A stretch of DNA of 64,000 nucleotides from Holosporales bacterium (GCA_947449005.1 CANFPP010000009.1:796-64795); one strand, 5' to 3'; counted from the stretch's first letter, positions 28,157 to 56,660 are shown. The notes: a model not told the origin generated them from the letters alone. Made by a program: numbers and translations.

Positions 28157-28165
28157 CCTGTATTC

Positions 28166-28906: not shown

Positions 28907-28909
28907 AAT

Positions 28910-30262: not shown

Positions 30263-30295
30263 TTTTTATCCTTTATTTTTTAATTCTTACTTAAG

Positions 30296-30763
30296 CTATG
30301 AGATTGAAAAGCTTAGTTTGTTGAAATTAATTATTATGTTGTCTCCCCTAACAGCAGAAGTAGCAATTGTATCGCGCCATTTTGCATTTTCTAGATCATA
30401 ATATGCGACAAGAAATCCTAAATATTGTATTTCTTCATCTATTCTAAGAGTAAATTCCTTTGTCTGATGAATATTAATTTCAAATTTATGTTCTTCTATA
30501 AGGTCCTTCTCTAGCGTTTCTGAAGGATTTGTATAGAGATCAAAAAACTTAGCTTGAGTAAACGAGTGAAGATTTTTAAGCTGATAAATGTGAACGTCAA
30601 CAGGTGAGGCACGACCATTGACATTGGGATTGAGATCTTCGCTACTTTGAAACTTTAGAGTTACTTGTTCCAACGGAGGGCGAGGAATTGATGAGCAACC
30701 TAATAAAACAAAAGATACACTAAACATAAGGAATATATAGCGGTATAAATATGAATATTTCAT
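30296..30763 (-). CDS. tssJ: T6SS outer-membrane lipoprotein TssJ
   Basis: Lipobox 'VLLGCSS'. 'DLNPNVNGRASPVDVHIYQLKN..F..AKFFDL' is SciN-like. 155 aa. Confidence 0.78.
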   Translation of the reverse strand: MKYSYLYRYIFLMFSVSFVLLGCSSIPRPPLEQVTLKFQSSEDLNPNVNGRASPVDVHIYQLKNLHSFTQAKFFDLYTNPSETLEKDLIEEHKFEINIHQTKEFTLRIDEEIQYLGFLVAYYDLENAKWRDTIATSAVRGDNIIINFNKLSFSIS

Positions 30764-31305: not shown

Positions 31306-32456
31306 GTGTGAACACTTTGATAAGCTGTTTTGGTAATTTCATCATTTGTGTTGACGGGAGTGTGTTTACGATATTTTGAAGGATCTACATGATAGTTTAT
31401 ATGCGTATCATTCTTATCATGATAGGGAGACTTTGTAATAAGCCATGTATTCCAGCCTAATTGAAAAGAGTTATTGAGACGGCATTTAGGAACATTATTT
31501 TTTTTTAAAATGAGATTGATGCAATATTTTAAATTGTTGTTAATGTAATACTTTATGAGTGTATTGAGGTTGTTTAAAAATGCAGAGCAGGGGATAAAAC
31601 ATTGAAATGTCTCATAATCAACAGGCCCGATGACCAGCGTAAATTTATTATTAACAGACCACACTTTTTGACCAAGAAGAGCTGTTTTTCCTAATTGATT
31701 GTATAAGCGCTTGCTTCCTAAAATTGTTCGGTCATGTTTTTCTAAACGTAACCATTCTCCTTCGCATTGACGAATGGAAACATCAAGTGAAAGATAACTT
31801 TTAAGAAGACGTGTTAACCCACAAGCAGATCGGGGTTGTTGAGCTAAAATGCCAGCATAAAACACGCTTGTGTTTGACAAACTAGCTTGAAAATCTTCAT
31901 TAGATGAAGTCAAGCCATTGCCATGAAGGCTCTTTAGAATGAGAGCATAATAATCATCTTTGTTTGAGTTCTGTTGTTGTTTTTCATAATTGATAAATAT
32001 GCGTTTTTTTGCCCAGGCTCGATAATAAAAAGAGAGAAGCCGATGATCAAATATATCTAAAAAATCAGCAAGCGTAGTATTGCCGAGACGTTTCTGGGAT
32101 AAAATGAAGTCCGTGTAATACTGAGGTAAAGCTCCTAAAATGCCCGTTAAGCCTAGAATAGATACAGTTAAATTTGGCTGTGTTAAATTAGAAGTTTCTG
32201 TATCAAATGTTGCAGGTTCAACGTTATATACGCCAGCCACAGGAAAGGATAGTGAAGTTTTGTTTTTCAGGCGCACAACTTCCTGGTGCGCTAAAGCAGT
32301 ATCACCAATGTAAGCTGTGGGCATAGGCATAGGTTGAGCCTTGTCCAAAAAAGAACCTTTTTCAAATAGTCTAATCACTTGAAAAAAATTAAAAAGGGAG
32401 GGTCTACTTATTAATTTTTCTAAAGGAGAACTTTTGATCCCATATTTGGTTTCCAT
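31296..32456 (-). CDS. tssG: T6SS baseplate protein TssG
   Basis: 'LFNFFQVIRLFE' N-terminal hallmark. 386 aa. Overlaps tssF. Confidence 0.85.
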   Translation of the reverse strand: METKYGIKSSPLEKLISRPSLFNFFQVIRLFEKGSFLDKAQPMPMPTAYIGDTALAHQEVVRLKNKTSLSFPVAGVYNVEPATFDTETSNLTQPNLTVSILGLTGILGALPQYYTDFILSQKRLGNTTLADFLDIFDHRLLSFYYRAWAKKRIFINYEKQQQNSNKDDYYALILKSLHGNGLTSSNEDFQASLSNTSVFYAGILAQQPRSACGLTRLLKSYLSLDVSIRQCEGEWLRLEKHDRTILGSKRLYNQLGKTALLGQKVWSVNNKFTLVIGPVDYETFQCFIPCSAFLNNLNTLIKYYINNNLKYCINLILKKNNVPKCRLNNSFQLGWNTWLITKSPYHDKNDTHINYHVDPSKYRKHTPVNTNDEITKTAYQSVHTCI

Positions 32457-34225
32457 TGTATAACCTCTCCTGATTTATTAGCGTATTGAATTGTCAGCTG
32501 AGTAAACGAATTAATAGAACAATAGGAAGCAATAAATTTTTCCAAAACACTTGAGAATAAAAAAATTGCTGGATGTTCTTTAACGAAAGTTACGATCATC
32601 TCTGTGCCGCTGAATACGGTGTTCCCATAATTATAAGATCCCCGAGCGACGATAGGTTTTGTTTCCACAGAGGCAATGTTATTAATAAATAAAGCATGCT
32701 CTTCCATTTGTGAAAAATTATACAAATGCAGGATTTCTTTTAAAAACTTAGTGGCATCTGAATTTTTAGAAAACGTAAATGTATTTAACATTAAATGAGA
32801 AATTAACTGCCAGCGAATGCCGTTGCTTAAAGGTAAATGATAGCAGGGAGTAAAAGGTAATAAGCTACGAATCTCTCCTTCTATATTTTCTTTTACCAGC
32901 TGTAGTTTTGGATGGCCGCCCCCGTGTGGTAACTGACTTGGTAGCTGGTGATTCGTACAAAGAAGAGATATTTGTGCAATTGAAGTTTCCACTTCCTGGT
33001 TGCTATCGACAAAAGAAATAAATACATCAATTTCACGATTGTGTTGTTCAATAGATGAGGAAGGGGCGCGATGCTTGCGTTCAGTGTGCCAATAAGTATT
33101 TCGGCTATTTTTTTCTTTAAATCCATATAAAGGAAGGCAACTTTGAAATGCTCCAGAAAGTTTTGACAAGGCAACTGATTTTACTTTATAAACCTCAATT
33201 TCTGTTAATCTTCTGGCATCAGGAATAATTGGATAAGCACTTTGTGTGTGATCAACAAGAATAGGTTCGGCTTCTTTGTCAAATAAATTAACCAAAGGAG
33301 TGCAATGCAGAGCAAGACTATTGTTTGTTAGGATAGGTCGTAGGGTGGGGGCAGAATCTTTAAAACAGAGAATAATTTTTATATCTCGACCAACATCATT
33401 AGCAACAAAAAAATCCTCTTTAAAAGCAATGTCAAAAAATAAAAATTTTGCAGGAAACACAAAAAACTCAGTTAACAAACGGTAACTAAGAGCAGATTGT
33501 TCTGGGTAAGGGATAATTCCAAAATTCTCGTTAAATCCAATAGCAAGTATATCGTCACGAGAAAATGCAACAGGTTTTTTACCTGCTTCAACAATAAAAC
33601 CTCCTAAACCATCTCTAAATAATAAATCATAAAAAATGTAAGAATAGGGCGTGGTAAGGTTAATAAAGAATCGAATGCTTTTGGGATTCAGCATTGAAAA
33701 TGATACTTTTGATTTCAGGCAACGAAGTGATATTTCTAATATGCACTGAGTTGTGGGCAAAAAAGGTAAAGCCGCTGATGTTTCTTCAATTAATTCTAAG
33801 TGAGTTATTTCTATGGGATGCACCATCACATCATAACATGTTGAAAATTGACACGTAGCACCCTCTGAAGGATTGCTTTCGATTTGCATTTTCTGAGGAA
33901 TAAAATGACCTGCTGTAGCTTCTGGATTTGCTTGAAATTGAATAACGGATAATGAAGGAATCGGCAGCTGATAATGAGGATATAACGTGCCAAGAATTGT
34001 ATCTGCAAGCTCTGGCAAATCATCATCAATTTTACGATGGATGCGAGCCGTTAAAAATGCAAAGGACTCAATTAAGCGTGCTATATGTGGATCTTCCGAT
34101 CCATGTTCATTTAAGCGCAGTCGGCCCGCAATACTTGGATTAGTTTTTGCAAACTCATCTCCTGCTGCTCGTAAAAAGCTAAGTTCATTATTATAGTATG
34201 ATAAAAAATCATCTTTCATAGACAA
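32420..34225 (-). CDS. tssF: T6SS baseplate protein TssF
   Basis: 'FLSYYNNELSFLRAAGDEFAKTNPSIAGRL', 'EDPHIARLIESFAFLTARIHRKIDDDLPE'. 601 aa. Confidence 0.92.
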   Translation of the reverse strand: MSMKDDFLSYYNNELSFLRAAGDEFAKTNPSIAGRLRLNEHGSEDPHIARLIESFAFLTARIHRKIDDDLPELADTILGTLYPHYQLPIPSLSVIQFQANPEATAGHFIPQKMQIESNPSEGATCQFSTCYDVMVHPIEITHLELIEETSAALPFLPTTQCILEISLRCLKSKVSFSMLNPKSIRFFINLTTPYSYIFYDLLFRDGLGGFIVEAGKKPVAFSRDDILAIGFNENFGIIPYPEQSALSYRLLTEFFVFPAKFLFFDIAFKEDFFVANDVGRDIKIILCFKDSAPTLRPILTNNSLALHCTPLVNLFDKEAEPILVDHTQSAYPIIPDARRLTEIEVYKVKSVALSKLSGAFQSCLPLYGFKEKNSRNTYWHTERKHRAPSSSIEQHNREIDVFISFVDSNQEVETSIAQISLLCTNHQLPSQLPHGGGHPKLQLVKENIEGEIRSLLPFTPCYHLPLSNGIRWQLISHLMLNTFTFSKNSDATKFLKEILHLYNFSQMEEHALFINNIASVETKPIVARGSYNYGNTVFSGTEMIVTFVKEHPAIFLFSSVLEKFIASYCSINSFTQLTIQYANKSGEVIQWKPNMGSKVLL

Positions 34226-34240
34226 GCTCTTTTTTCATGA

Positions 34241-34708
34241 TTAATTAATTCCTTCTGCATCAAGCTTAATATTTTGCACTGTATAGCGAGAGTCAGCGTA
34301 AGCTAAGGTTAGCTCCAAAGCAGAATCGCCATTTTGCAGCTCAGCTTTAACAAAAAAAACAGCAGACTCTTTGTTTTTAAGTATTACTTTTACGTTTTTT
34401 AAACGGGGCTCATAGAGCGATATTGCCTTTTCTAGATAGAAACGAGCTTTATTAAGATCATGTGCAGAATAAATTGAAAGTGATGAGAAATCTTCTATAC
34501 CATACGTCAAAACAGAGGTGTTTAGCTCAGTTAGGAAAGAAGGAAGCGTTTGAAAAAAACAGTGTGTTTGTAAAATGCATTCAATGTTTTTCAATATACT
34601 TTCTATAATGAGGTCAAGTGTGTCTTGTGAAGAGTATAGGCCGTGAGCATTATATGGTGTCTGTAATGCCGAATCAGTGGCGCGGTCGAAAAGTGCTAAC
34701 GATATCAT
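34241..34708 (-). CDS. tssE: T6SS baseplate protein TssE (gp25-like)
   Basis: 'SLALFDR', 'SVLTYGIEDFSS', 'LYEPRLKNVKV'. 155 aa. Confidence 0.82.
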   Translation of the reverse strand: MISLALFDRATDSALQTPYNAHGLYSSQDTLDLIIESILKNIECILQTHCFFQTLPSFLTELNTSVLTYGIEDFSSLSIYSAHDLNKARFYLEKAISLYEPRLKNVKVILKNKESAVFFVKAELQNGDSALELTLAYADSRYTVQNIKLDAEGIN

Positions 34709-36015
34709 GACAAACTCATTTCTAAAAATAAGTTTTCATCAAGCTGATCTTGAAAATGATGTGGTGTTAAATTGAACGCGCCGTAAAAATGACCTGGCTT
34801 AGTGGGCCGTTCTAGCACTGTAACATTTGCTGCGCTAAGTGGATATTTGGCGGTAAAATCTGGCGTTGCTTCTCCGGCAGCATTAGATGTGTATTGAAGA
34901 ATCCAGCTTTGTAAGTAATTTTGCAAGCCATCTCGAGTGATAAGTGAGCCAATTTTTTGACGACCAATGACCTTTAAATAATGAGCAAACCGTGATACGC
35001 ATAAAATCGTATCAAGTGAAAGCGCAACTTGATCTTTTGAGCGTTGGTAAAATGCTTTGCAGGCGTAAAAAACACAAAAGGGACTGTAAGTGCAGCGTGA
35101 TAATATAATAAATCCGAGATTTTGTAGCTCAATCTCATGCGTGTATCTTAAAACCGTTTCACAAGGTGGTTTTGCATAAAAAGGTGAAACATCATCTTCA
35201 AAATAATGTGGAATAAGTCCTTCAACTAATCCTCCTTGTAGGGCATCTTTACGAGTCCCTTTTATTTCGTAAAACCAACCTGTTTGCTCAAATGAGCGAA
35301 TGCATACACCCGCTAAACAATAAGCAGAGTTTCCCCAAAGGTAGTGATTATGCTCATAGGCATCCTCTTGAAAGCAAAAATCATCGGATCGATCATCCAT
35401 CAATACATAGGGAATTCGCAGGCAAAATCGGATGAGCATTAAATTTATGAATCGTGCATCTGCGTCTTGTCGAATTTTCTTCCATTTGTCATAAGAAAGA
35501 TGTTCAAAAATACGCGAAAAATCAACGAGCGACTCAAGGTCTGAAAGTTGACTAACCCCAAAAAACTGGGGGTCAAGGCCAATCAAACAGGGAGAGAAGG
35601 AGGATGCAGCGATTCCTGCAAGCGCTCTTAAGGCATAGACATCATTACTTCCTGCGTTGTCTTGCTTTGGATTCACAAAATAATCACAGATGAGAAGTCC
35701 AAACGGATGTCCGCCAGGTTGATCAAATTCATTGGTATAAATTTTTTTAAAAAGCTGACTTTGATCAAAGTCAATAGCATTCATCAAATCTCGGCTGAGT
35801 TCAGCCCAGCTTATGTCAAGAACTCGAATTTTAAGATTTCTGATGTTTTTCTCGCGATCCAAAAGATACGAAAGTCCCCGCCAGCTTGCTTCCATTTTTT
35901 GGAAATCTGGATGATGCAAGATCGCATTTACTTGGCGATTCAAAAGTGCATCAATTGTAACAAGGAGGGTCTCATACATTAAAAATGCTTTCCGTAAAAG
36001 GGATCTCAGATGCAA
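34705..36015 (-). CDS. tssC: Second, N-terminally shorter TssC paralogue (TssC40-like sheath protein)
   Basis: Collinear with the canonical TssC: 'EASWRGLSYLL', '[31 protein letters not shown]', 'RFAHYLKVIGRQKIGSL', 'ERPTKPGHFYGAFNLTPHHFQ'. TTG start 36015, or ATG 35979. Confidence 0.82.
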   Translation of the reverse strand: MHLRSLLRKAFLMYETLLVTIDALLNRQVNAILHHPDFQKMEASWRGLSYLLDREKNIRNLKIRVLDISWAELSRDLMNAIDFDQSQLFKKIYTNEFDQPGGHPFGLLICDYFVNPKQDNAGSNDVYALRALAGIAASSFSPCLIGLDPQFFGVSQLSDLESLVDFSRIFEHLSYDKWKKIRQDADARFINLMLIRFCLRIPYVLMDDRSDDFCFQEDAYEHNHYLWGNSAYCLAGVCIRSFEQTGWFYEIKGTRKDALQGGLVEGLIPHYFEDDVSPFYAKPPCETVLRYTHEIELQNLGFIILSRCTYSPFCVFYACKAFYQRSKDQVALSLDTILCVSRFAHYLKVIGRQKIGSLITRDGLQNYLQSWILQYTSNAAGEATPDFTAKYPLSAANVTVLERPTKPGHFYGAFNLTPHHFQDQLDENLFLEMSLS

Positions 36016-36071
36016 AAGAATTATCTCTTTGCACCTGAGATAGTTGTGTTAAAACAGCCTTATGATGCTGG

Positions 36072-37580
36072 TTACCCTAGCTTTGGAATTTTAGCGACAA
36101 GACGCAGCGACGCTGTTAGCTCCTCCATTTGCAACCAAGGCCTTAGCCATGCAACGGCATTATAAGATCCGGGACGTCCTGGAATCTCCTCAACTTTTAC
36201 AAGAGCTTCTGCTAAAGGAAACTTTGCTTTCATGTCTTGTCCAGCATCCGTGTTTCCATTCACATAATTAATAATCCAACGATTAAGCCACGACTCAACA
36301 TTTGAAGCCTCCATAAAGCTGCCAATCTTATCTCTCGCCATGATTTTTAAATAATGAGCAAAGCGACACGTAGCCATAATATAGGGAAGACGCGCAGATA
36401 TGGATGCATTGGCTGTTGCATCTGCTAAATCATATTGTTTTGGTTTTTGTGTTGTTTGTCCGCCAAAAAAGACTGCATAATCAGTGTTCTTATAGTGACA
36501 TAAAGGCAAAAATCCAAGGCCGCTTAGTTCGGCTTCTCTGCGGTCTGTGATCCCAATTTCTGTTGGGCACGCAGCATCAATTTCTCCGTCATCTGTTTTA
36601 AAGATATGCATAGGAAGACCTTCAACTTTACCTCCACCTTCAGCGCCTCTAATTGCAGTGCACCATCCATATTCACTAAACGCTGACGTGATTCTAACTC
36701 CATGGACAAAAGCAGAGTTCATCCAGCAATAATTATTGTGTTCAAGCTCTCTGCTATTTCCTTCTGCATCGAGTGGGGCTTCTTCATAGTCAAATTCATC
36801 AATAGGCTTTGTAGATGCACCATACGGAAGACGGGCTAAGACGCGAGGCAACGTAAGAACAACAAAACGTGCATCTTCACTATCTCTAAAATTTCGCCAA
36901 GCAATATATTCAGCTGAATCAAAGACTTTAGATAGATCTCGTGGCTTAGAAAGATCTGTCCACGTATCAAATCCAAATGTTGATGCACTCGCACTTGAAA
37001 TAAAAGGACAGAAACTGCTTGCGGCAACACCTGAAATATTTTTAAGCATCTCTAAGTCATCAGGACTATTTGTAAAGTCATAATCGGCAACTAATAAGGC
37101 GTAAGGCTCGCCACCGGCGCTTCCAAATTCGCTTTCGTAGACTTTTTTAAATAGCTGACTTTGGTCAAACTCTGCCGCTTTATCTAAATCTTTAAAAATT
37201 TCACGCTTGGTTGCATTCATCACTTTTATTTTTAGATTGCTTCCTGTTTCTGTGTTCATGACAAGATAACTTAAGCCCCGCCAAGTGCCTTCTGCTTTTT
37301 TAAATTCTTCGGCATGCATGATTTCTTTTAGCTGTTGTGATAGCTTTTTATCAATAATCTGGATAGCTTCATTAAGCGTAATAACAAGGTTTTTATTCCA
37401 CTTTATTGTGCCATTCAAGATTTGTTGTACGAATACTGTTAATAGCTCTTTTGCTTGTTCTACAGGTGTTTGTTTTGTAACAGCAATCACTTGATCCACT
37501 AGACTCAATGGAGCCTCAGTGCTTGAAGTGCTTGTGTCTGTAGTTTGCTCTACTCCAACTGTTTCTTCAGTAATACTCAT
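36072..37580 (-). CDS. tssC: T6SS contractile sheath large subunit TssC (VipB)
   Basis: 502 aa. '[11 protein letters not shown]', '[31 protein letters not shown]', '[17 protein letters not shown]', '[22 protein letters not shown]'. Confidence 0.94.
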
Positions 37581-37592
37581 TTGTTTATCTCC

Positions 37593-38102
37593 TTAGTTAG
37601 GGGCGACTTGTTCTAGTCCAAGTTCGCTTGTAATACTTTTAAGTTGATCATTATTTTGAAGTAGATCTTCCAAAATTCTCTCTAAGTCTTCTGAACGGTC
37701 TGTTTTTGTTGACAAATCTCTAATTTTATTTCTGATATCTAATAAATCTTTTAAGGGCTTAATCTGAGCAATGACATTGGCAGGCTCGAAATCAGAAAGT
37801 TTTTCAAAATGAAGCTCAATGCTCATATTGCTGCCGTCATTTTGAATAACATTCTCAACATTAAATGTTAGTCCTGGCTTAAAGTTGGACATGACCTCAT
37901 CGAAATTATCACGGTCAATCTGAATAAATTTTCGCTCACGCAACGATTTTTTCTCTGCTCCTGCATTGCCTGAGAAATCTCCTAATACGCCGACAACAAA
38001 AGGAAGTTCTTTTTGAACTACTGCCCCTTCGGTTTCAACTTCATAAACAATATGTACTCGTGGTTTGCGAACACGAGAGAGCTTCATTTGTGTGCTTTCC
38101 AT
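37593..38102 (-). CDS. tssB: T6SS contractile sheath small subunit TssB (VipA)
   Basis: '[33 protein letters not shown]'. 169 aa. Confidence 0.94.
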
Positions 38103-38125
38103 TTTTTTTCCTTTTCTTTAATTTT

Positions 38126-46678: not shown

Positions 46679-46938
46679 CCATGTTTCTCAAATAGCTTTT
46701 TAGCGGTGAGGGTAGAGCCAAAATCAACATAATGACTCTTAATCAAACTAATTTACAGTATCAAAATCTAGTTATTAAACGGTTTGCAACGTTTCTTAGA
46801 AGTTATTCCGTCAAAGCCATTTGCACGATAACGAGCCAATAATCTTTTTATCTGCCTGGTGCTGATGTTAAGTATCTCTGCAGCTTTATATTGCTGGTGT
46901 AGCAAAAGGGATATTTTAACTTTGCTAAAACCTGACAT
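46679..46938 (-). pseudogene. Remnant of an IS transposase N-terminus (HTH region), interrupted by stops
   Basis: The minus-strand translation from ATG 46938 is 'MSGFSKVKISLLLHQQYKAAEILNISTRQIKRLLARYRANGFDGITSKKRCKPFNN*', then '..SLIKSHYVDFGSTLTAKKLFEKHGI*'. This pattern resembles the N-terminal HTH part of rve/DDE transposases I recall being annotated as ISNCY-type. The catalytic domain is absent. Confidence 0.55.
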
Positions 46939-47078
46939 TTCTATCTGTCGAGTACACCCTCACATTGCTACAGAGGGTGTGCTTGCCTAAAATAGAAAAT
47001 TGAAAAACATTACAACTGGATTGATTGGCTTAGAATAGATATTTCTAGTTTTATGAAGTTTCAAATAAGTTGCTTAAA

Positions 47079-50000
47079 ATGTTTTTTTTGTTAAAATTAG
47101 CTTATTGTATAGTTTTTGTAGTTAATCAAAGTAATGCTACTGAGTGTATCGATTTAACAGATATAAATCCTCACGAAATTTCTCCACCTCCGTTAAGTGA
47201 ATTAATTACGCAACTTAAAACATCACTTACTCTTTCTATGGTTGAAATTGAAGAAGAGAGCTTTGAAGGGTTCTGTCTTACAAGTGCTGATAAAGAGACA
47301 GAGAAATTGTTTCTATTAGCAAGCAATGGTAATAGAAGGGCCTATCAACAACTAAAAGAAAAAGCGCAACATACTGACCCCATCGCTTGTGGTTTTATGC
47401 TTCGTTATTTATTGACTGTGGGTCCTACTTATCATTGTTATGATGATTTAGACGCGAATCCTCAAGAATATTTAAGAAAATGTGAGCAAAGCTTACGTGA
47501 CTTGTCTCAGCAAGAGCATCCTTATGCACTTGAAATACTAGGATTGGTATATGAAGTCGGATGCGGTGCAATTATACCTGATATAGAGACAGCTAAAGTC
47601 TATACATTAAAGGCTGCGCTGAAAAGATATTCTAGAGCTCAAAATTTAATGGGATACGTTTTAAATAAACAGAAAGATCCTGAAGCTTTACTTTGGTTTA
47701 TTCGTGCCGCCAGAAACGGTTCTCTCACGGCGATCAGAAATTTAGGATTTGAAGTTGAAAGAATAAAGCTTAAGGAACTCGCCGTAGAGTTTTATAAAAC
47801 AGCAGCGATAATGGGTGATAGTGATTCGTTATTAGTAATTGCGAATTACTACAAGACTCTTGGGGATCATCATACTGCTTTTCTCTACTTACAGAAGGCC
47901 GTGGAGTTCAATAGCATTGAAGCTTATTTTCAAATAGGTAGCTATTTATTACAAAGTTTATTAGAAGAAATAGGGGTCGAAAAACCAGAGCCCCAAAGTA
48001 AAATTAGTGATTATTTTTCCGTTGCAGCCAAATATAGATACAAACATGCTTTTTATAATTTAGCGCAGTATTATGAAGTTATCAAAGATGAACATGAAAA
48101 AATAAATAGTTTAAGGCGAGGGGATGCTATTGGAGATACCTCTTGTACTTTAGCTCTTGCAAAAAATTTACTTGAGACAGATCTAGCAGAAAGTAGGGCA
48201 CTTTTTGAAAAATGTTTGTCGTTGAAAGTAAAGAATGCTGAAGCCTGGTTAGCCCAATGTATTTTGCAGGAATGTGATATTCTTATCGACGAAGAGGAAT
48301 TGTTGTTTGCAAAACTAACACAGGCATTAGATTCACTTAAACTTTATGCCCATGAAAAAAAATCTGTTTTTTACGAAGTTAATCGCGAAAAAACACTTAT
48401 TGTAATTTGGAAACTTCTTAAAAGGTTTTTAAATCTACTAGATGAAAACAAAGTGGTTCAAGCGAGTCAATTGGAACCCTACATTAGTGAATTCCTGCTA
48501 TTGCCAATTCTAGATGATTTGACAGAGGCTCAACCATTGTTAGGTAATTTTGCTTATGATTTAACTCTTTTTTATTTACATAAGCAAAATCATATTCAGG
48601 CATCAAAAAATATGTTGCTTGCAGTACGATTTGGTCATGAATCAGCTCTTGATCTTATCGGAATGGTAAGATCGCAGATTGTAGATGCATCGACAGAACA
48701 TAGTAATTTAGACGAGCCAATAAGGGAACGGAGAACAATAGAAGAGGAACTTCTATTGATGATGCCTGAGCCATCACTTTCTCCGGCTACTATTAGTTCT
48801 TTAGCTTTCGGGTATTATTTTGGGCGATATGGATTTTCTAAAGATCATGTGAAGGCTTTGTACTGGTTTAGGAAAGGTACTGAAGTTGGTATTGATAGTT
48901 TTTTTCATTGCCTTGCATATGTTCAGTGGAATGAGGGAAAAACTCTTCAAGAAAAAAAAGAAGCTGCAGAAATTTACAGACAAGCGATTGCTGTTCAGAA
49001 AGAAAATCTAAACAATAGGGGGGTTTCAAAATTACACCTTGCTCGAATGCTTGTTGATTTATCATCCCAAGAAACTGGGAACAGAACAAACGTGCAAGAA
49101 GCGTATATGCTTATCAATGAAGCTTTATCAGATGGGGGCATAGGAAGCAAAAAGCGCAAAAGTTTTACTTGGTATGGAGTTTCAAAAGATATGCAAGTTT
49201 CTTTTGAAGAAGCAGAAGCATCTTTCTTAGACATAGTGGATAGCTCCGATCCGTCTATAAGTATAGGGAAGCGGGGTAAAGCAGCATTTGATTTAGCTTG
49301 CCTCAATTTATGGGGAGGTTTTCAAAAAGCAAAGAGTTTAAAACAGACTCTAACTCACTTTAGTCAAGCTCTACATTATGGTGAAATGGAAAGCCATTTA
49401 TTTTTAACGGTCATTACTGATTATTTAACGATGAAAACGATTAGTGGCTGGGTTGTCGGAGAGCCTGACAGTGCCTCGGTTCTGTATAGTGCCAGGCGTA
49501 CAGATTTAAATTTAACGACACATGAAATTGTGGATGTTCAACGACGAACAAAATTAGGAGATTCAGCTGCTTTAAATATGATAGGAACATTTTACCAAAC
49601 TGGCTCAAATGGTTTTTCTCGTATTCCTGTTTTGGCGAAACTGTATTTTATGAAAGCAGCTCAGGCTGAAAATATGACAGCTATGTTTAATTTGGCGAAT
49701 GGATTTTTTAATGGGTGGTTTGGTGCCGCTGACGAGAATGAAGCTCATAAATGGTATAAAGAAGCTGCTAAGAGAGGACATATGCCCTCAAAGTATATGT
49801 GTCTCAGTATAGAGCAGCAAAGAGCAAGAATACTTAATGTAACGGCATCTCAACCTAATTTGATAAAAAAGCTTGAAGAACTTTATCGTAATAAAGATTT
49901 TTTCCCGGCGGCTTTAGATTTATCTTTATGTTACAGCTACGGTCTTAAGGGGATAAGTCCTTCTTCCGAACATGCTGTCCTTTGGTTAGAAAGAGCGGCG

Positions 50001-53000
50001 CAAACGAATCAAATCGCTAAGCTTATTTTTAAATCATATTATCCTACTCTAGTTACTCTTACAGAAGAGGAATTAACGAAACTCTGGTCATCTAGAACCA
50101 ACGTTGAGGGACGTTCAACAATAGCAATTATTGGAGGAGGAGTAGGCGGAACTCTTTCAGCCGTTTTACTGGCGAAATTGAGAGATTATGCAGGAGAGCC
50201 TGTCTTTACCATTAATCTGATTGAAAGAGAAAATAATTTATTAGAAGGGGCAAGTAAGTCTATTTCGCGTCTTCATCTTGGAGCAGAGTATCCAAAAGAT
50301 CAATTAACAGCTTTGCAGTGTTTATATTGTGCAATCCTTTTTCGTCAAATGTTTCAAACTGACAAAATATTAACAGAACGTAAGACGCTTAGTTTTTTGT
50401 TGGCTCGAGCTTGTGAAAGCGAAGAGGCTCCGCACAAGAGACTTCAGAGAGAAGAACTTCATCAACACTATGAGCGGATCAAAAGTAATTATGGAGAGTA
50501 TTACGAAAAGCTAAAAGAAATTTATGGAGAAGCTATTAACGATCTTCTTTTTGGTCCTCCGTCTACATTTTTCGATGTTATGCAAGAGGATGAGCTAGAG
50601 AAATTAAGGTTGTTCTCTCATTTTTCTACGGGAATTAATACAAGAGAAAGAGGATTTCAGCCAGTTGCACTTGGAGTCATCCTAGAGAAGCTCGTTCGTG
50701 AACAGTCCAATATTAAAGTCTATAAAAACTCTAACATTATAGATGTTGAGCATCATCGTGAGAGAGGATTTCATCTAAGAACATCCGACTCTAGAAATAT
50801 ATATGGAAAATATTTAATTAATGCTTCATGGGATAATATTCCACGTATCAACTCCTTGGTTGTAGGGCAACCTTCTATAGGAGCAGCTAGTAGAAAGGAT
50901 GTTACGGTCTATCTTAGAAGTTTAGCGATGATTGATATTAGTGAGTGTACAGCTTTACCCACAGATAGAAGTTTCTTTGGACTTATCGATAGCTATGGGG
51001 GAATGCTATCCTGTTTTACGGATAAAGTTGCAACTTTATTCATTCCTAAAGAAGGGATGTCTTATCAAGGAGAATACCATCTCAATCAAGATGAGTTTCT
51101 TATTAGTACACTTCCAACTGAAGCCTCTCATCGTTATGAAGAGTTAAAAAATGAAGCAAAAATGCAAGAAATCGTCCGAAATATGATTGAAGATGCTATA
51201 AGTAAATATCCTCAGCTAAGAGGAGCAAAACCTATTACGCTCATAACAAAGACGACTCTTTCTTCTGATGATGAGATTTTTAAGAGAACTCATGTGGGGG
51301 CTACATGGATTGATGAAGGCAACGAATGTTTGCAAGTTTATGCTTCTAAAGCTACATTTGCTCCGCTGTTAGCAGCTCAAACTTTAGCAAGGTTTGTGAT
51401 GGATAAGCCAGAAGGAAAAAGAGTTAAACTAGATGAGTCTACGCACAGATTTTTACAGAATATTTCCGGTGAGCATGTTTTAGAAGACCCTGTGTTACCT
51501 CGAGACTTAGTTTTAGTACCATCAATTGATTTAGAGGAAAGTCTACAAATAGATAATGATCTCTATTCCTATGCTTTCAGAAGAAATCTTCCCTATGCTC
51601 TTTTTGATCCAAATGATGATACGCATGGTATAGGAGATGTGGCCGGACGTTTTAGTAAGCTGGCTTTGAGTAATGAACTAGATTTAGAGTGCAGTGTAAT
51701 TACTGTTGAATTAGCAAAATATCTTATAGAACTCTTTGAACTTCAAAAATCATTTGTCACAATTAAACTCGGGACATTTATTGAGGGTGATGATCAAGAG
51801 GAAGAAGATATGTTGGGAGCTGTTCTGACATCTCTCATAAACCTGCCTCATTTAAAAAAGTTAACATTAAAGAATTGCAATTTAACAGTGTTGTCTCATT
51901 CTAAGCTATTAAATGTGCTTATACAAAAATTAGAAAATCTCACCCTTAGTGATGATGTTGTTTTAGATGAAAGAAGTTCTAAACATATTTTTAAAAAGGA
52001 AACTGCTACAAATATTAATTATCTATCTGTAAGCGGCTCAACTATTAGCCACATTGTTTTGTCGCATATAGTAGATTTTATCTTAGTTCACCATTCGCTA
52101 GTAGATGTAGAGTTAGCCAACAATAGTTTTAATTTTAAGCATAAAGAAGAAGCTATTTCTTCCATAGAAAGATTGATTAAATATTCTCAGACTTTAAAAC
52201 ATTTATATTTAAACGGACACAACCTATTCGGGGGAGAAAGTAGCTCAGCGAGATCTTCTCAAACACCATGGACAGAAAGTAATATAATTAATAGAGTTTT
52301 AAGAACCATTGCTGCTAATAAGTCTTTAGACTATGTAGATTTAAGCAATAGAGACTCAACTGATTTGCAAAACGCTTTAGATTACTATTTTGCTTTTCGA
52401 CAAAAAGAGCATCTGATGATTTCTCCTCATGATATTGAGGAGTTCGAAAGACAATTACAAGTTTCTATAGAAGATGGTCGAGTTTTTACTTTTTCTCCAG
52501 AAAAAACGCATGATGAAGAGTTAGTTCCTGCTCAAGAAGTTGAGATAGAATACGTAGGAACGTTAAGAAATCAACCCATGTTTTTTGAAGTTAAAAGAAT
52601 CTTTGGAGATGATATTGGTGGTGGTTATAGCGCAATGGATGTCAATCGTCGTTTTGTTGTAAAAATGCTAAAACAAGTTCTAGGAGGAGATGATGAGCTT
52701 AAGAAAAGCATAATTGTTCCTATTCTTATTAATGAGATTGAAGATAATTTTGAGCGCTTGCCGAGAAGTATGATGACTAAAGAGCATTATCGTTCAAGTG
52801 TGAGAGAAATCAGAATTCTTGATGAAGAAAAGCAGCATTTAGTTGTACAATTAAATGATCTTTTGGGACAACCTGAAGGTCAAAGAGTATGTGATGTTGA
52901 GTTGGTTAGAGAATGCCAGAGCCGAATAGAAGAATTAACACAGCAGCAAGCTGCTACATATCACCAGCTCTTGAATTTAGTGACGAGTGAAAAAGATAGG

Positions 53001-53444
53001 ATTAAAAGCCTAAAACAATCTTATGCAAGAAGCCCCGGAGTTATTGCCGAATACTTGACAAATTATATAGCGATAAGTCCGCAGGAATACTACGTACTTG
53101 AAAAACAAGATAATCGGTTAGCCTATCATAAAGATGAAGAGAGTGAGCAAAGACTAACAATTCTTGATGCAATTTCTTATCTGCAACAAAAAAACCTAGC
53201 AGTATGGGAGAATTCCGGAGAACTTTTGGGCAATCTTATCTTAACCCATTTCTATTCTCCTTTTCCTCAGCAAGAAATACTTCATCTTCTCTATGCCAAT
53301 GATCATTTTGATAGACTTAAACAGACTAAGAAAACTGCGGAGCTTTCCCGGGAATTGCTCTCGCAGCCGAAAGCACGGATTGGATTAGAGCGGGACGATC
53401 CGAAGGATAATCATGAAGCTAGTCTCTTGCAGCAAACGACGTAG
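47079..53444 (+). CDS. Giant exported multidomain protein: Sel1-repeat arrays + embedded FAD/NAD(P)-binding oxidoreductase module + RNI-type leucine-rich repeats + OTU-like C-terminal region
   Basis: Signal peptide 'MFFLLKLAYCIVFVVNQSNA'. Sel1 units such as 'GDSAALNMIGTFYQTGSNGF..AKLYFMKAAQAENMTAMFNLANGFFNGWFG..EAHKWYKEAAKRGH' (about 47.5-50.0 kb). 'IAIIGGGVGGTLSAVLLAKL' dinucleotide fold (about 50.1-51.4 kb). LRRs 'LPHLKKLTLKNCNLT', 'LENLTLSDD', 'LKHLYLNGHNL' (about 51.8-52.4 kb). The C-terminus is discussed in findings. I preferred ATG 47079 to TTG 47070. Confidence 0.8.
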   Translation: MFFLLKLAYCIVFVVNQSNATECIDLTDINPHEISPPPLSELITQLKTSLTLSMVEIEEESFEGFCLTSADKETEKLFLLASNGNRRAYQQLKEKAQHTDPIACGFMLRYLLTVGPTYHCYDDLDANPQEYLRKCEQSLRDLSQQEHPYALEILGLVYEVGCGAIIPDIETAKVYTLKAALKRYSRAQNLMGYVLNKQKDPEALLWFIRAARNGSLTAIRNLGFEVERIKLKELAVEFYKTAAIMGDSDSLLVIANYYKTLGDHHTAFLYLQKAVEFNSIEAYFQIGSYLLQSLLEEIGVEKPEPQSKISDYFSVAAKYRYKHAFYNLAQYYEVIKDEHEKINSLRRGDAIGDTSCTLALAKNLLETDLAESRALFEKCLSLKVKNAEAWLAQCILQECDILIDEEELLFAKLTQALDSLKLYAHEKKSVFYEVNREKTLIVIWKLLKRFLNLLDENKVVQASQLEPYISEFLLLPILDDLTEAQPLLGNFAYDLTLFYLHKQNHIQASKNMLLAVRFGHESALDLIGMVRSQIVDASTEHSNLDEPIRERRTIEEELLLMMPEPSLSPATISSLAFGYYFGRYGFSKDHVKALYWFRKGTEVGIDSFFHCLAYVQWNEGKTLQEKKEAAEIYRQAIAVQKENLNNRGVSKLHLARMLVDLSSQETGNRTNVQEAYMLINEALSDGGIGSKKRKSFTWYGVSKDMQVSFEEAEASFLDIVDSSDPSISIGKRGKAAFDLACLNLWGGFQKAKSLKQTLTHFSQALHYGEMESHLFLTVITDYLTMKTISGWVVGEPDSASVLYSARRTDLNLTTHEIVDVQRRTKLGDSAALNMIGTFYQTGSNGFSRIPVLAKLYFMKAAQAENMTAMFNLANGFFNGWFGAADENEAHKWYKEAAKRGHMPSKYMCLSIEQQRARILNVTASQPNLIKKLEELYRNKDFFPAALDLSLCYSYGLKGISPSSEHAVLWLERAAQTNQIAKLIFKSYYPTLVTLTEEELTKLWSSRTNVEGRSTIAIIGGGVGGTLSAVLLAKLRDYAGEPVFTINLIERENNLLEGASKSISRLHLGAEYPKDQLTALQCLYCAILFRQMFQTDKILTERKTLSFLLARACESEEAPHKRLQREELHQHYERIKSNYGEYYEKLKEIYGEAINDLLFGPPSTFFDVMQEDELEKLRLFSHFSTGINTRERGFQPVALGVILEKLVREQSNIKVYKNSNIIDVEHHRERGFHLRTSDSRNIYGKYLINASWDNIPRINSLVVGQPSIGAASRKDVTVYLRSLAMIDISECTALPTDRSFFGLIDSYGGMLSCFTDKVATLFIPKEGMSYQGEYHLNQDEFLISTLPTEASHRYEELKNEAKMQEIVRNMIEDAISKYPQLRGAKPITLITKTTLSSDDEIFKRTHVGATWIDEGNECLQVYASKATFAPLLAAQTLARFVMDKPEGKRVKLDESTHRFLQNISGEHVLEDPVLPRDLVLVPSIDLEESLQIDNDLYSYAFRRNLPYALFDPNDDTHGIGDVAGRFSKLALSNELDLECSVITVELAKYLIELFELQKSFVTIKLGTFIEGDDQEEEDMLGAVLTSLINLPHLKKLTLKNCNLTVLSHSKLLNVLIQKLENLTLSDDVVLDERSSKHIFKKETATNINYLSVSGSTISHIVLSHIVDFILVHHSLVDVELANNSFNFKHKEEAISSIERLIKYSQTLKHLYLNGHNLFGGESSSARSSQTPWTESNIINRVLRTIAANKSLDYVDLSNRDSTDLQNALDYYFAFRQKEHLMISPHDIEEFERQLQVSIEDGRVFTFSPEKTHDEELVPAQEVEIEYVGTLRNQPMFFEVKRIFGDDIGGGYSAMDVNRRFVVKMLKQVLGGDDELKKSIIVPILINEIEDNFERLPRSMMTKEHYRSSVREIRILDEEKQHLVVQLNDLLGQPEGQRVCDVELVRECQSRIEELTQQQAATYHQLLNLVTSEKDRIKSLKQSYARSPGVIAEYLTNYIAISPQEYYVLEKQDNRLAYHKDEESEQRLTILDAISYLQQKNLAVWENSGELLGNLILTHFYSPFPQQEILHLLYANDHFDRLKQTKKTAELSRELLSQPKARIGLERDDPKDNHEASLLQQTT

Positions 53445-53477: not shown

Positions 53478-54914
53478 TCATGTGATTTTTTTTTGCATTA
53501 GATTTTCAAAATCTGGTGGACAAAAGCCACCAAATTCTTGTTCTAATTTATGCAAAATATCTATAACAACATGATCATAAAATGGTTTTGCAACAATTTG
53601 AACTCCAATAGGAAGGCCTTCTTTTGTCTGGCCGCACCTCACAACACCAACAGGCCAGCCTAAAAGATTATATGTCATTGCATAAGTGTAATCTTCGATA
53701 TTGCTAAATGATGTGTTATGAAGCTTTGCGGGAGTTGCACAAGGAGGACATAGAATGATGTCATAATTGTCCATAAAATCATGCATCTCGAAGCGAAACT
53801 TTGCAATTTGCGAAATGTATTCGTATAAATCTATAAGGTCAAATTTTGTCTTTTGTGTATCCTTAATAAACTCTTTTTGTAAGGAAGAAATATTTTTTGT
53901 CTTTAATTTATTAAACGTATCATAAACATTTTGACTTTGGAGTCCTTTCCTAAAATAAACTTTCCATAAGAGTTCAAAAGTTTGATCGATGCTGGGAGGA
54001 GCAACCCTGTTAACTACACATCCGTTCTTAGAAAAAAATTCGGCTGTCATATCAATGACAGAACTTATTTCCGGGGTTGGCTTAACGATTCCATTATCTG
54101 TATAAACGGCTACCCTTAGATGACTAAATTCATCTCCCTTCAAAGAATGCATTTGTATAGGAAGGCTTGTTGGATCTTTAAAATTGTATCTGGCAAGGAT
54201 GGGAAGCGATAATTTCAGATCTTCTACATACCGTGCCATTGGTCCAAATGTTCCATGCGGATCAATTAATCCAATTCCAGAAAATGGAGATTTAATTCCA
54301 TCAAGACTTAACAATCCTTGTGTGGGTTTTATGCCTGTAATTCCGCAAAAATGAGAGGGGACCCTAATGCTCCCACCTCCATCAGAACCTAATCCAAGGG
54401 GAGACCCGTTTGCTGCTAAAATTGCAGCTTCACCGCCTGAACTACCTCCCGGAGAATACTCCAAATCATAGGGATTGTTTGTTACCCCATAAATAACATT
54501 TGATGTTTCGTAAGCTTCAGCAAATTCAGGAGAGTTTGTCATCCCTATGATGATAGCCCCTTCCTCTAATAGTCTTTTTACGCAAAAAGCTGAAGTACTT
54601 GCTACACGATCTTTATAGCCTTCCGTACCATAAGTGCAGATATAGCCTTCAATATCACAAAAATCTTTAATTGTTATGGGTAGTCCTTGCAGCTTACCAA
54701 TGTTATGTCCTAACGCAAGTTGCTTATCGGTTTGTCTAGCTTTAGATAAGGCTTCTTCTTGTTTCTGTTGGACAACAGCACCTAGGATTGGATTTACCTT
54801 TTCTATTTGATCTAGAAAAGCTTGAACAACTTTTTCTGAACTTAAAGCGCCTGATTTTATTTCATCAACCAGTGTCGTTGCAGATTTTTCAATAATTGAC
54901 TTCATAAAATTCAA
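53478..54914 (-). CDS. Amidase-signature family amidase (GatA-like)
   Basis: 'GLPITIKD', 'GGSSGGEAAILAANGSPLGLGSDGGGSIRVPS' amidase signature. 478 aa. Confidence 0.88.
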   Translation of the reverse strand: MNFMKSIIEKSATTLVDEIKSGALSSEKVVQAFLDQIEKVNPILGAVVQQKQEEALSKARQTDKQLALGHNIGKLQGLPITIKDFCDIEGYICTYGTEGYKDRVASTSAFCVKRLLEEGAIIIGMTNSPEFAEAYETSNVIYGVTNNPYDLEYSPGGSSGGEAAILAANGSPLGLGSDGGGSIRVPSHFCGITGIKPTQGLLSLDGIKSPFSGIGLIDPHGTFGPMARYVEDLKLSLPILARYNFKDPTSLPIQMHSLKGDEFSHLRVAVYTDNGIVKPTPEISSVIDMTAEFFSKNGCVVNRVAPPSIDQTFELLWKVYFRKGLQSQNVYDTFNKLKTKNISSLQKEFIKDTQKTKFDLIDLYEYISQIAKFRFEMHDFMDNYDIILCPPCATPAKLHNTSFSNIEDYTYAMTYNLLGWPVGVVRCGQTKEGLPIGVQIVAKPFYDHVVIDILHKLEQEFGGFCPPDFENLMQKKIT

Positions 54915-55023
54915 GACCTCTTGTTGGATTGTGAGTTTTCCGATTTGTTTAAATCAGCTTTTTAAAATTAAAAGAAAAGAAGGAACAGGTTAAAACCAGT
55001 TCCTTCAAGAGAGAGAAAATCAG

Positions 55024-55746
55024 TTAAATCTTGCGAGCAAGTGTAACGCCATCACCAAGAGCAAGCATGCTTATCTCTACTCGCTTATCATGCTTTAGTT
55101 TTTCATTTAAGCTGCGGACGCCAACAGTATCAATGTCGTTATGTGCAGTATCAATGACTTTTCCGCCCCATAAAACATTATCAACAATTATAAGTCCGCC
55201 TGAGCGCACTAAATCTATTGCATATTCGAAATAAAGGGATTGATTACTTTTATCTGCATCGATGAAAACGATATCAAATGTTTCAGAGTATCCTGATTTT
55301 TTAAGTACTTCTAAAGTGTCTTCAGCGGCGGCAATCCGTAAATCAATTTTGTGATCAACCTTTGCAAGTTTCCAATATTTTTGTCCCAGACTTGTCCACT
55401 CCTCTGAAACATCACAAGCAATTATTTTCCCATCTTCAGGTAAAGCTGAGGCCATCCAAAGAGTGCTGTATCCCGTAAATGTACCAATTTCGAGAATTTT
55501 TTTTGCCCCAACAAGTTTAACCAGAAGAGCCATAAACTGTCCTTGATCAGGAGAGGATTGCATGACCATTTGAGAATTATTATGTGTATCAATACGTAAT
55601 TCTTTCATTAATTCTGGTTCATTAGAAGTCACCTTGAGGATATATTGATAAAGCTCATCAGTTATAGGAAGAATCCCTTTTTCTTTGAACTCATATTCTT
55701 TTGGAACAGCTCTAATATAATCTTCTTTTTTTAATACGTTTGTCAT
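55024..55746 (-). CDS. Class I SAM-dependent O-methyltransferase (caffeoyl-CoA OMT-like, Methyltransf_3)
   Basis: 'KKILEIGTFTGYSTLWMA', 'FDIVFIDADK', 'GGLIIVDNVLWGGKV'. Confidence 0.85.
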   Translation of the reverse strand: MTNVLKKEDYIRAVPKEYEFKEKGILPITDELYQYILKVTSNEPELMKELRIDTHNNSQMVMQSSPDQGQFMALLVKLVGAKKILEIGTFTGYSTLWMASALPEDGKIIACDVSEEWTSLGQKYWKLAKVDHKIDLRIAAAEDTLEVLKKSGYSETFDIVFIDADKSNQSLYFEYAIDLVRSGGLIIVDNVLWGGKVIDTAHNDIDTVGVRSLNEKLKHDKRVEISMLALGDGVTLARKI

Positions 55747-55786
55747 AATTTTTCCTTTTTTAAATATAATTTAATTTTTAGTATTA

Positions 55787-56512
55787 TTAAAAAGCCTCAG
55801 ACTGTTTTGTTAACTCTTCCATCGCGCTAATAAGGGAAGTGTCTTTTTTATCTTGCATAGCAAGTCCTTCTGCATTCACAGCAGTAACGTTTCTAATTCC
55901 GATAAAACCTAAAGTGGTACGCATATATGGCGTAAGATGATCATATGATGTTCCGCCATAACAACCGCCAGAGGTCGTGATTAACATTACAGGTCGATCT
56001 TCAAGCATTCCTTGTGGGCCACTAGAAGTGTATCCGAATGTTTTTCCAGCACGCAGGATAAGGTCAATGTAAGATTTCAACGGTGCTGGAATGGTGAAAT
56101 TATGCATTGGTGTTGCAATCACGATTGCATCAGAAGTTTTTAATTCATTTATCAAAGTATCTGATAAGCGCCTGAGACTTTCAGCCTCTGGTGTCAGAGC
56201 AGTACCAGCCAAAATTACTTCAAGGGTTTGATTGTTTATATAAGGTACTGGTTCTCTTCCTAGATCCCTGTACATAGGTTCATATTTTCCTGGGTAACGA
56301 CTATTTAGTTGATCCAAAAAGTGCTGGGATAAGACCCTAGAATTAGAACTCGTTAAATTTGGACTTACGTTCATCACCAATAATTTTTTTACCACTTTTG
56401 CTGCTCCTCCTATGAATTCTTCTGCTATCGATGCGTTTGCGTTATGTGAAGTTAGTGTTGAAACAACGACTATCAAAGCTTTGATAGAGAATGATATTTT
56501 GTGTGTGTTCAT
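55787..56512 (-). CDS. azoR: FMN-dependent NADH-azoreductase (AzoR-like) with an N-terminal signal-peptide-like extension
   Basis: 'KKLLVMNVSPNLTSSNSRVLSQHF', 'AIVIATPMHNFTIPAPLKSYIDLILRAGKTF', 'LGFIGIRNVTAVNAEG'. Preceded by about 40 aa, 'MNTHKISFSIKALIVVVSTLTSHNANAS'. Confidence 0.8.
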   Translation of the reverse strand: MNTHKISFSIKALIVVVSTLTSHNANASIAEEFIGGAAKVVKKLLVMNVSPNLTSSNSRVLSQHFLDQLNSRYPGKYEPMYRDLGREPVPYINNQTLEVILAGTALTPEAESLRRLSDTLINELKTSDAIVIATPMHNFTIPAPLKSYIDLILRAGKTFGYTSSGPQGMLEDRPVMLITTSGGCYGGTSYDHLTPYMRTTLGFIGIRNVTAVNAEGLAMQDKKDTSLISAMEELTKQSEAF

Positions 56513-56660
56513 TTTTTTATCCTTTTTATTATTAATTATAAATTTATGTTTTTCTTTGTAAGGGCTATATTTTCATATTTTCTCTCCTTCATTCTGGATT
56601 TGTCATAATATTTTATTCTTTCAAATAAACTTTTTTTATTACTAATTTTTTTTGTTGAAA

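Follow-up and report, generated by a model that had tools for sequence, protein, structure and literature searches.

Within a 64,000-nucleotide stretch of DNA from a Holosporales bacterium (GCA_947449005.1 CANFPP010000009.1:796-64795; the window), a single open reading frame (ORF) places a flavin adenine dinucleotide (FAD) enzyme between Sel1-type and ribonuclease-inhibitor-type (RI-type) leucine-rich repeat (LRR) scaffolds in one exported-looking protein. An earlier reading made from the DNA alone (the sequence-only reading) had described this protein as a chimera of five parts in one ORF; the single, real frame of 2,121 codons and the position of the enzyme between the two repeat scaffolds stood. 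The protein is no one-off and belongs to a conserved, uncharacterised family with the architecture signal peptide-(Sel1)-FAD-LRR, and the OTU-like character of the fifth part, the tail, found no support. Our preferred explanation, to which we give a probability of about one half, is that the protein is a Sec-exported, scaffolded flavoenzyme directed at the host, from a conserved family of Paracaedibacteraceae-type protist endosymbionts and related uncultured bacteria.

The embedded FAD/NAD(P) oxidoreductase with a dinucleotide-binding fold that had been proposed for the middle of the protein is real. As judged from its predicted fold and key motifs, its core, which runs to about residue 1445 and is followed by a conserved helical extension, is an intact two-domain FAD enzyme of the DAO superfamily. 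The dinucleotide fold comprises G1019-G-G1021-V-G-G1024 and the acidic E1049 (INLIE) that ends strand 2, and appears as a strand-helix-strand unit in the AlphaFold2 model; the key residues of the whole module are G1019xG1021xxG1024, E1049, GAS1059, R1064xH1066xGxE1070Y1071, C1081, R1280, G1307, R1403, and K1424. A word-indexed search with the module returned two relatives only, and an exhaustive profile search returned 450 representative proteins at E <= 1e-3, 76 of them at E <= 1e-30. Nine columns are invariant in an alignment of 52 family sequences (G1019, G1021, H1066, E1070, Y1071, C1081, G1159, G1307, and K1424), and the window protein retains all nine; E1049 (kept in 48 of the 52), S1059, R1064, R1280, and R1403 are among the near-invariant positions. 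Every column that is at least 80% conserved is likewise retained, except for a poorly aligned first column and the conservative changes G1069A and L1206V. The concern that FAD-binding residues might be missing beyond the GxGxxG motif can thus be put aside, such features being found well beyond it.

Structure comparison identified the class of flavoenzyme, as the sequence-only reading had hoped it might. Modelled with AlphaFold2 on the 52-sequence alignment, the module reached a predicted local distance difference test (pLDDT) score of 91.6 and a predicted template modelling (pTM) score of 0.93, and Foldseek found 912 matches to the model in the PDB at E <= 1e-3, the top 50 of which are all DAO-type enzymes. 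The best was Streptococcus alpha-glycerophosphate oxidase (2rgo; E 3.6e-15), with glycine oxidase (4ysh), Proteus L-amino-acid deaminase (5fjm/5hxw), dimethylglycine dehydrogenase, GlpD, L2HGDH, and sarcosine oxidase also near the top, and a Bordetella 'exported protein' (3dme) among the further relatives; identities are 9-16% and TM scores ~0.5-0.7. A sequence profile searched against the PDB had its best match in Mycoplasma pneumoniae GlpO (4x9m; E 1.5e-15). Several homologs exceed the Pfam DAO (PF01266) threshold of 27.9 bits (P0040, 72.3; P0088, 57.5; P0043, 55; P0034, 35.6 bits). No NCBIfam equivalog model came near its cut-off, and none for GlpO or GlpD matched the window protein; the best GlpO/GlpD score of any homolog was 38.2 bits (P0020) against a cut-off of 460, and stand-alone homologs gave weak matches to the tRNA-modifying enzyme MnmC. 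The core is its own clade and falls in no characterised subfamily, its nearest neighbors being glycerophosphate oxidase/dehydrogenase, glycine oxidase, and L-amino-acid deaminase. We also note that C1081 (DNA 50319-50321) is invariant in 52 of 52 sequences and lies 15 residues past the FAD loop's invariant histidine; this cysteine may attach the flavin covalently or may be redox-active.

The architecture recurs in Odyssella, Finniella, and uncultured alphaproteobacteria, as we found when we surveyed the best 150 representatives from the profile search. Colinear BLAST matches extend over residues 567-1771, that is, the second Sel1 cluster, the FAD module, and the LRR: P0015 (1,549 aa) matches in one alignment, and P0017, P0018, P0011, P0013, and Odyssella P0008, P0010, and P0012 in two colinear pieces. 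With a hidden Markov model (HMM) of the family LRR, the domain was detected C-terminal to the FAD module in 20 of these 150, half of them at E < 1e-70. A shorter class (P0003-P0007, P0021) runs from signal peptide to FAD to LRR and then continues into unrelated C-termini, often coiled-coil, so that what follows the LRR varies within the family and the window tail is one occupant of this slot. The named members are WP_165380359.1, an 'FAD-dependent oxidoreductase' of Candidatus Finniella inopinata, MBY0280627.1 from an alphaproteobacterial metagenome-assembled genome (MAG), and three paralogs in Candidatus Odyssella thessalonicensis L13; throughout, the family is annotated solely as 'FAD-dependent oxidoreductase' or as hypothetical. 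Literature searches found no description of a Sel1/LRR protein with an embedded DAO-type flavoenzyme, in keeping with the earlier impression that the arrangement is undescribed.

Ahead of each of the three Odyssella paralogs stands a separate ORF with a signal-like N-terminus and with Sel1-like repeats that are homologous to residues 15-335 of the window protein, in which this region is fused into the single ORF. The preceding ORF at one locus (L002) contains an F-box (PF00646) at 23.2 bits, above the cut-off of 20.5, and that at another (L003) a sub-threshold one at 18.2 bits. Paralogs also occur in tandem: a 71.8-kb scaffold (L014) carries two signal peptide-FAD-LRR genes, at 5823-9839 and 10001-13546. 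That scaffold comes from ENA sample ERZ19026152, which also holds a contig of the window organism. Separately, the stand-alone homolog P0020 (JGI 3300059473) adjoins a gene of the mitochondrial-carrier family, a eukaryote-like feature which hints that its contig derives from an intracellular organism or a eukaryote-associated genome. As for the window organism itself, its MutS shares 57-61% identity with the MutS proteins of Paracaedibacter, Odyssella, Finniella, and MAGs of Paracaedibacteraceae, which would place it near the Paracaedibacteraceae and among relatives of protist endosymbionts; the amoeba- or protist-symbiont setting assumed earlier is reasonable by relatedness only.

The N-terminus of the protein (MFFLLKLAYCIVFVVNQSNA followed by TE) is laid out like a Sec signal peptide, in n, h, and c regions, with a short charged start and, by eye, a hydrophobic core of 9-14 residues. 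The putative cleavage site, between SNA and TE, has small residues at -3 and -1 and an acidic residue after it, and there is no twin-arginine motif in the N-terminus. Similar N-termini were found in P0001, P0003-7, P0011, P0014-18, P0021, P0022, P0025, and P0031; signal-like N-termini, as a rule with acidic residues behind them, are present in nearly all complete multi-domain homologs, whereas the ~415-aa stand-alone homologs lack one and begin directly at the Rossmann strand. This layout agrees with the Sec-type signal peptide predicted by the sequence-only reading, and we infer, with good support, that the protein is exported through it. A lipoprotein reading of LAYC was ruled out by the tyrosine at -1 and an N-terminal region that is too short, and secretion of the autotransporter or RTX type by the helical C-terminus and the lack of any such domain.

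The Sel1-like repeats are also present, over a shorter length than had been claimed. Three stretches of the protein match Pfam Sel1 (PF08238), at 64.3 bits against a threshold of 30.7, and Sel1-like-repeat (SLR) and tetratricopeptide repeat (TPR) proteins of the PDB align at residues 140-340 and 800-905 with E down to 3.6e-10. Using a repeat HMM that we trained on this protein together with its homologs, we found units at residues 575-599, 834-861, 872-897, and 948-974, and the region from about residue 567 to 990 is colinear with P0015 and with the second ORF (ORF2) at the Odyssella loci. In place of ~950 residues of continuous Sel1 repeats, only two clusters are detectable, and they are joined by conserved sequence that is probably helical. 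NCBIfam gave weak matches to MerG, ExoR, and MotX.

C-terminal to the enzyme, the RI-type LRR is supported by the predicted structure rather than by the Pfam scores of the window protein, for which the LRR families fall below their thresholds and only LRR_4 and LRR_1 appear at all (E 4.7 and 7.1). With eleven aligned homologs, AlphaFold2 produced eight strand-helix units at pLDDT 80-96. By an RI-type LRR we mean a horseshoe in which strands and helices alternate and the repeat is about 22-44 residues long (mostly ~24-33). Foldseek matched the domain to ribonuclease inhibitor, NLRP, and FBXL proteins (E 1e-6 to 1e-4) and to Legionella LegL1, and in the homolog P0021 the domain matches Pfam LRR_6 at E 7e-15.

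The 344-residue tail is an orphan. No homolog was found in a word-indexed search of 5.8 billion proteins, among the 150 family representatives, or in a JGI metagenome scan; tblastn against 30 fetched loci and the window returned the self-match alone, and searches against Pfam and PDB sequences at E <= 10 gave nothing relevant. The first residues after the LRR, ISPHDI, do resemble the extension ISPQDL in Odyssella P0012. Modelled without alignment depth, the tail consists of a short beta segment, two long helices (residues ~1898-1929 and 1940-1983), and further helices, and its pLDDT is 32-48 except in the helical hairpin; matches of this model in fold searches appear to be due to its LRR part. 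An OTU deubiquitinase or cysteine protease, the identity hinted at for the tail by the sequence-only reading, has no support from Pfam, the PDB, or homologs: the tail alone gives no Pfam match to OTU (PF02338) and no PDB sequence match at E <= 10, and the loop proposed to hold the catalytic cysteine, GDDIGGGYSAMD, contains none. The tail has just two cysteines, which sit near each other in the helices at its center (QRVCDVELVRECQ), a long way from this loop.

The reading frame is unbroken over its entire length in DNA of 36% GC. Divided into four segments (the repeats at the N-terminus, the FAD module, the LRR, and the tail), it contains no stop, against 30-101 per segment in the other two frames, and its codon usage correlates with that of twelve other window genes at r = 0.79-0.86 in frame and 0.14-0.36 out of frame. 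Since the in-frame agreement extends to the tail, the tail is coding and compositionally native, and there is no sign of a chimeric join. Four independent assemblies yielded one-ORF homologs that span signal peptide to LRR and are colinear with the window protein, which speaks against the mis-assembly raised earlier as a concern. Translation could alternatively start at an in-frame TTG at 47070, which would add MLK. As for independent assemblies of this same gene, the exact protein has no record in the public protein collection, and a metagenome contig of the same organism (ENA) ends before the gene.

Divergently oriented upstream of the gene is a regulator of the LuxR/GerE family (Table 1) whose ~200-residue N-terminal domain has no Pfam or PDB match, its helix-turn-helix (HTH) part alone being recognized. 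Homologs of this regulator adjoin family members, including distant ones, at seven loci counting the window (the others are L003, L004, L012, L021, L022, and L029). The homolog at L004 is 51% identical and lies directly upstream of a family member, those at L012 and L003 are 35% and 24% identical, and those at L021 and L022 are found at the loci of more distant members of the flavoenzyme family; at L029, tblastn matched the HTH part only, and the 275-aa ORF recovered there aligns over its full length. The regulators are 274-283 aa long and conserve the N-terminal domain. Because the pairing recurs in seven of ~18 loci with usable flanks (our own estimate) across deep divergence, it suggests that regulator and enzyme are a functional pair.

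Between this regulator and the gene are the relic of an insertion sequence (IS) and a unique inverted repeat. The inverted repeat overlaps a promoter-like site at 46965-46993, and a second such site follows at 47009-47036; six promoter-like sites were found where 3.4 were expected from shuffled controls, which is no clear excess, and a search upstream of the homologs for a shared operator found no common inverted repeat. A type VI secretion system (T6SS) cluster (TssM, TssK, TssF, TssC, TssB, Hcp, and VgrG) occupies 24755-42469. The gene had been described as one IS relic away from this island; relic and T6SS are both present, but ~4.6 kb lies between the cluster and the gene and also contains two ORFs without a Pfam match ahead of the LuxR-type gene (42839-43696 and 43873-44616), a few shorter ORFs, and the LuxR-type gene itself. 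Linkage to a T6SS is not conserved in the homolog loci, and it fits awkwardly with a Sec-type signal peptide.

Two further observations concern the cluster. Hcp (39286-39813, + strand) is clear inside it (PF05638, E 1.5e-31); the T6SS of Holosporales apparently goes without some core components, including TssD (PMC11909080). VgrG is followed by a DUF6931 protein (41861-42469). Downstream of the gene, and convergent to it, lies a co-oriented run of small-molecule enzymes (53478-60043, - strand), comprising an amidase, an O-methyltransferase, a flavodoxin-like FMN reductase, an unassigned 129-aa ORF, a protein of the 'thermostable hemolysin' family, an AMP-binding enzyme, and a TauD-type dioxygenase, which may be a biosynthetic cluster.

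Table 1. Coordinates of the gene, its predicted parts, and associated features. Positions are those of the window unless a homolog locus (L number) is given.
Feature	Position	Strand	Basis
Whole gene, 2,121 aa + stop	47079..53444	+	ORF reading, codon usage
Signal-peptide-like N-terminus, aa 1-21, MFFLLKLAYCIVFVVNQSNA followed by TE	47079..47141	+	Sequence; similar N-termini in homologs
Sel1/TPR-like cluster 1, aa ~140-340	47496..48098	+	PDB 4bwr, 6deh, SEL1L; weak TPR/Sel1 Pfam matches; homologous to Odyssella ORF1
Sel1-like cluster 2 and homolog-conserved helical region, aa ~567-990	48777..50048	+	Pfam Sel1; PDB 6ork, 6ur7; repeat HMM
DAO-superfamily FAD-dependent oxidoreductase module, aa 1005-1530	50091..51668	+	Profile search, AlphaFold2, Foldseek, residue conservation
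RI-type LRR horseshoe, aa ~1531-1777, ~8 strand-helix units	51669..52409	+	AlphaFold2, Foldseek, family conservation
Orphan C-terminal tail, aa 1778-2121 (344 aa)	52410..53441	+	No homolog, Pfam, or PDB match; native codon usage
Unique GC-rich inverted repeat, AGTACACCCTC-N11-GAGGGTGTGCT, 11-nt arms, 11-nt spacer	46951..46983	.	Between IS relic and gene
IS relic: frameshifted fragments of transposase N-terminus (HTH part)	46672..46938	-	Sequence inspection only
LuxR/GerE-family regulator, divergent, candidate cognate regulator	45451..46299	-	Pfam GerE; full-length homologs adjoining family members
Regulator homologs	L004 335-1180; L012 15993-16817; L003 13086-13937; L022 6619-7443; L021 10712-11539; L029 8990-9817		
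Odyssella ORFs preceding the family paralogs	L001 6282-8117; L002 6327-8423; L003 6222-8573		

If the explanation that we prefer holds, the protein would leave the bacterial cytoplasm by the Sec route and act outside the bacterium, probably on the host. Enzymes of the DAO superfamily oxidize a C-H bond next to N or O and pass a hydride to FAD, and the window enzyme would oxidize a small substrate by such a transfer. The near-invariant arginines R1280 and R1403 hint that this substrate is probably anionic; amino acids, hydroxy acids, and glycerol-3-phosphate are examples of small molecules of this kind. As there is no respiratory partner outside the bacterial membrane, O2 would be the likely acceptor, and its reduction would release H2O2, making the enzyme an oxidase. 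The Sel1-like solenoid and the RI-type LRR that flank the enzyme would most likely hold it at particular proteins or compartments of the host, and the adjacent LuxR-type regulator probably controls its expression. We infer host targeting, and what speaks for it best, if indirectly, is the F-box in the Odyssella partner ORFs; the relatedness to endosymbionts seen in MutS, an LRR of the NLRP/RNase-inhibitor/FBXL/LegL1 type, and the expansion of paralogs (three in Odyssella, the tandem pair at L014) also count toward it. Among the representatives, it is the named ones whose lineage is on record, and these are all from endosymbionts.

Several observations weigh against this explanation. Taken alone, the window protein scores 17.1 bits against Pfam DAO, below the threshold, and neither fold similarity at the observed TM scores and identities, which has no power to name a substrate, nor the gene neighborhoods of the stand-alone homologs, where contigs are short or neighbors uninformative, hint at what is oxidized. 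Exported flavoproteins that carry their cofactor normally use the twin-arginine translocation (Tat) system, for which the N-terminus lacks the motif, and a Sec route would mean that FAD is loaded only once the protein has left the bacterial cytoplasm. We identified no means by which the protein would cross the outer membrane, many Sel1 proteins do no more than reside in the periplasm, and the window protein itself contains no F-box.

Some of these points are shared by a periplasmic or envelope housekeeping enzyme that stays behind after Sec export, uses its Sel1 and LRR parts to organize a bacterial complex, and delivers electrons to a membrane acceptor with no host target. The Sec-type signal peptide and the missing outer-membrane route favor such an enzyme, as do the many characterized bacterial Sel1 proteins that are periplasmic, the weak MerG, ExoR, and MotX matches, and the presence among the fold relatives of membrane-linked L-amino-acid deaminase and of the Bordetella 'exported protein'. 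We nevertheless consider it unlikely: the named members belong to protist-endosymbiont lineages, an F-box in two of the three Odyssella partner ORFs is sensible only inside a eukaryotic cell, and RI-type LRRs combined with variable C-terminal tails are typical of effector families. A different division of labor, in which the repeats bind a host protein and the flavoenzyme oxidizes a side chain or modification of that protein, for example an amine or methyl-amine, by a logic like that of flavin-dependent demethylases, would account for protein-binding scaffolds on both sides of the enzyme, and some DAO-superfamily enzymes do act on amines borne by macromolecules, to which the weak MnmC matches of the stand-alone homologs may be added. 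That those ~415-aa homologs have the same conserved residues and no scaffolds suggests a small-molecule substrate instead, and no LSD1-type amine oxidase is among the top fold matches, so that we regard a protein-directed oxidase as quite improbable.

We take an equally skeptical view of the protein as a cargo effector of the neighboring T6SS, even though a complete-looking cluster, Hcp and VgrG included, is located 4.6 kb upstream and the T6SS is named in a review as the leading candidate for delivery in Holosporales, whose effectors are not yet known (PMC11909080). T6SS cargo is not expected to carry a Sec-type signal peptide, Pfam detected no PAAR, MIX, or Rhs-type marker and no adaptor gene, the homolog loci L012, L013, and L014 have no T6SS gene within 10 kb, and the LuxR-type gene and IS relic stand between gene and cluster. 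More improbable still is an artefact of assembly or annotation through a chimeric join, or an FAD module that is a dead pseudo-enzyme serving as a scaffold. The equivalent sequence is indeed split into two adjacent ORFs in all three Odyssella paralogs, and both the lack of any relative of the tail and the absence of the exact protein from the public collection could be read in this way. Against it stand the 2,121 stop-free codons with uniform, native codon usage, the one-ORF homologs of independent assemblies, the resemblance of ISPHDI to ISPQDL just after the LRR, and the retention of the family-conserved residues.

A fuller version of the host-directed flavoenzyme may be offered tentatively, with the odds against it in all its parts together: the proteins would form the first secreted flavoenzyme effector family in Holosporales-type protist symbionts, exported unfolded by Sec and gaining FAD outside the cytoplasm, possibly from the host. 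Their Sel1 and LRR parts would position them on host targets, with a neighboring F-box ORF for two of the Odyssella paralogs, where they would convert host metabolites locally and/or produce H2O2; the LuxR-type protein would be a dedicated sensor with a new ligand-binding domain, and the orphan tail a new host-interaction or catalytic module.

A conserved, signal-bearing, paralog-expanded family, with F-box partner ORFs beside two of the Odyssella paralogs, supplies concrete effector candidates, and its enzymatic core is directly assayable. Host-interaction mechanisms of Holosporales and Paracaedibacteraceae are poorly understood, with no secreted molecules known (PMC11909080). The label 'FAD-dependent oxidoreductase' conceals a distinct multi-domain class, and its members raise the question of how a Sec-exported flavoprotein obtains its cofactor. 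If a DAO-type oxidase is indeed secreted between binding scaffolds, it would represent a new effector logic, that of metabolite oxidation or H2O2 release targeted by repeats.

Among known systems, GlpO and GlpD (PDB 2rgo, 4x9m, 2qcu) are closest to the enzymatic core, having the same two-domain DAO/GR2 fold and supplying the best Foldseek and profile matches. They share with the window family GxGxxG, the acidic residue that ends strand 2, a loop of the form Ser...H-x-G-x-x-Y behind the Rossmann unit, and a conserved Lys-x-Thr near the C-terminus. However, identity is only 11-16%, the NCBIfam models are far below their cut-offs, and the window family has its own invariant E1070 and C1081 and a SKATFAP motif located where GlpD/GlpO have a GGK..YR signature. 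GlpO and GlpD are, moreover, single cytoplasmic or membrane-associated enzymes with no signal peptide, Sel1, or LRR. Mycoplasma GlpO is an H2O2-producing virulence enzyme. The same fold is found in glycine oxidase ThiO, sarcosine oxidase, and L-amino-acid deaminase (4ysh, 1ng3, 5fjm, 5hxw; E 1e-14 to 1e-11, target-normalized TM up to ~0.73), whose FAD-dependent oxidation of amines is the type of chemistry proposed here, although at 9-16% identity there is no family-level sequence match and these enzymes are not set in repeat scaffolds.

The combination of a Sel1-repeat protein with a flavoprotein of the secretory pathway is seen in SEL1L-ERFAD (FOXRED2), to our knowledge the only such functional pairing, which we regard as an analogy and not as evidence. 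Human SEL1L aligns weakly to residues 230-332 of the window protein; SEL1L and ERFAD are two separate proteins, and ERFAD is not of the DAO family. FOXRED2 is listed under ERAD, the degradation pathway associated with the endoplasmic reticulum (PMC13251465). Finally, the eukaryote-like repeat effectors (Legionella LpnE/EnhC, LegL1 (4xa9), and F-box effectors) differ in that the known ones serve as binding modules or have enzymatic domains of other kinds, with no DAO-type example found in our literature searches, and in that the Legionella proteins use Dot/Icm and not a Sec signal. Yet it is with these effectors that the window family shares its Sel1 repeats, RI-type LRR, paralog expansion, variable C-terminus, and, beside two Odyssella paralogs, F-box ORFs.

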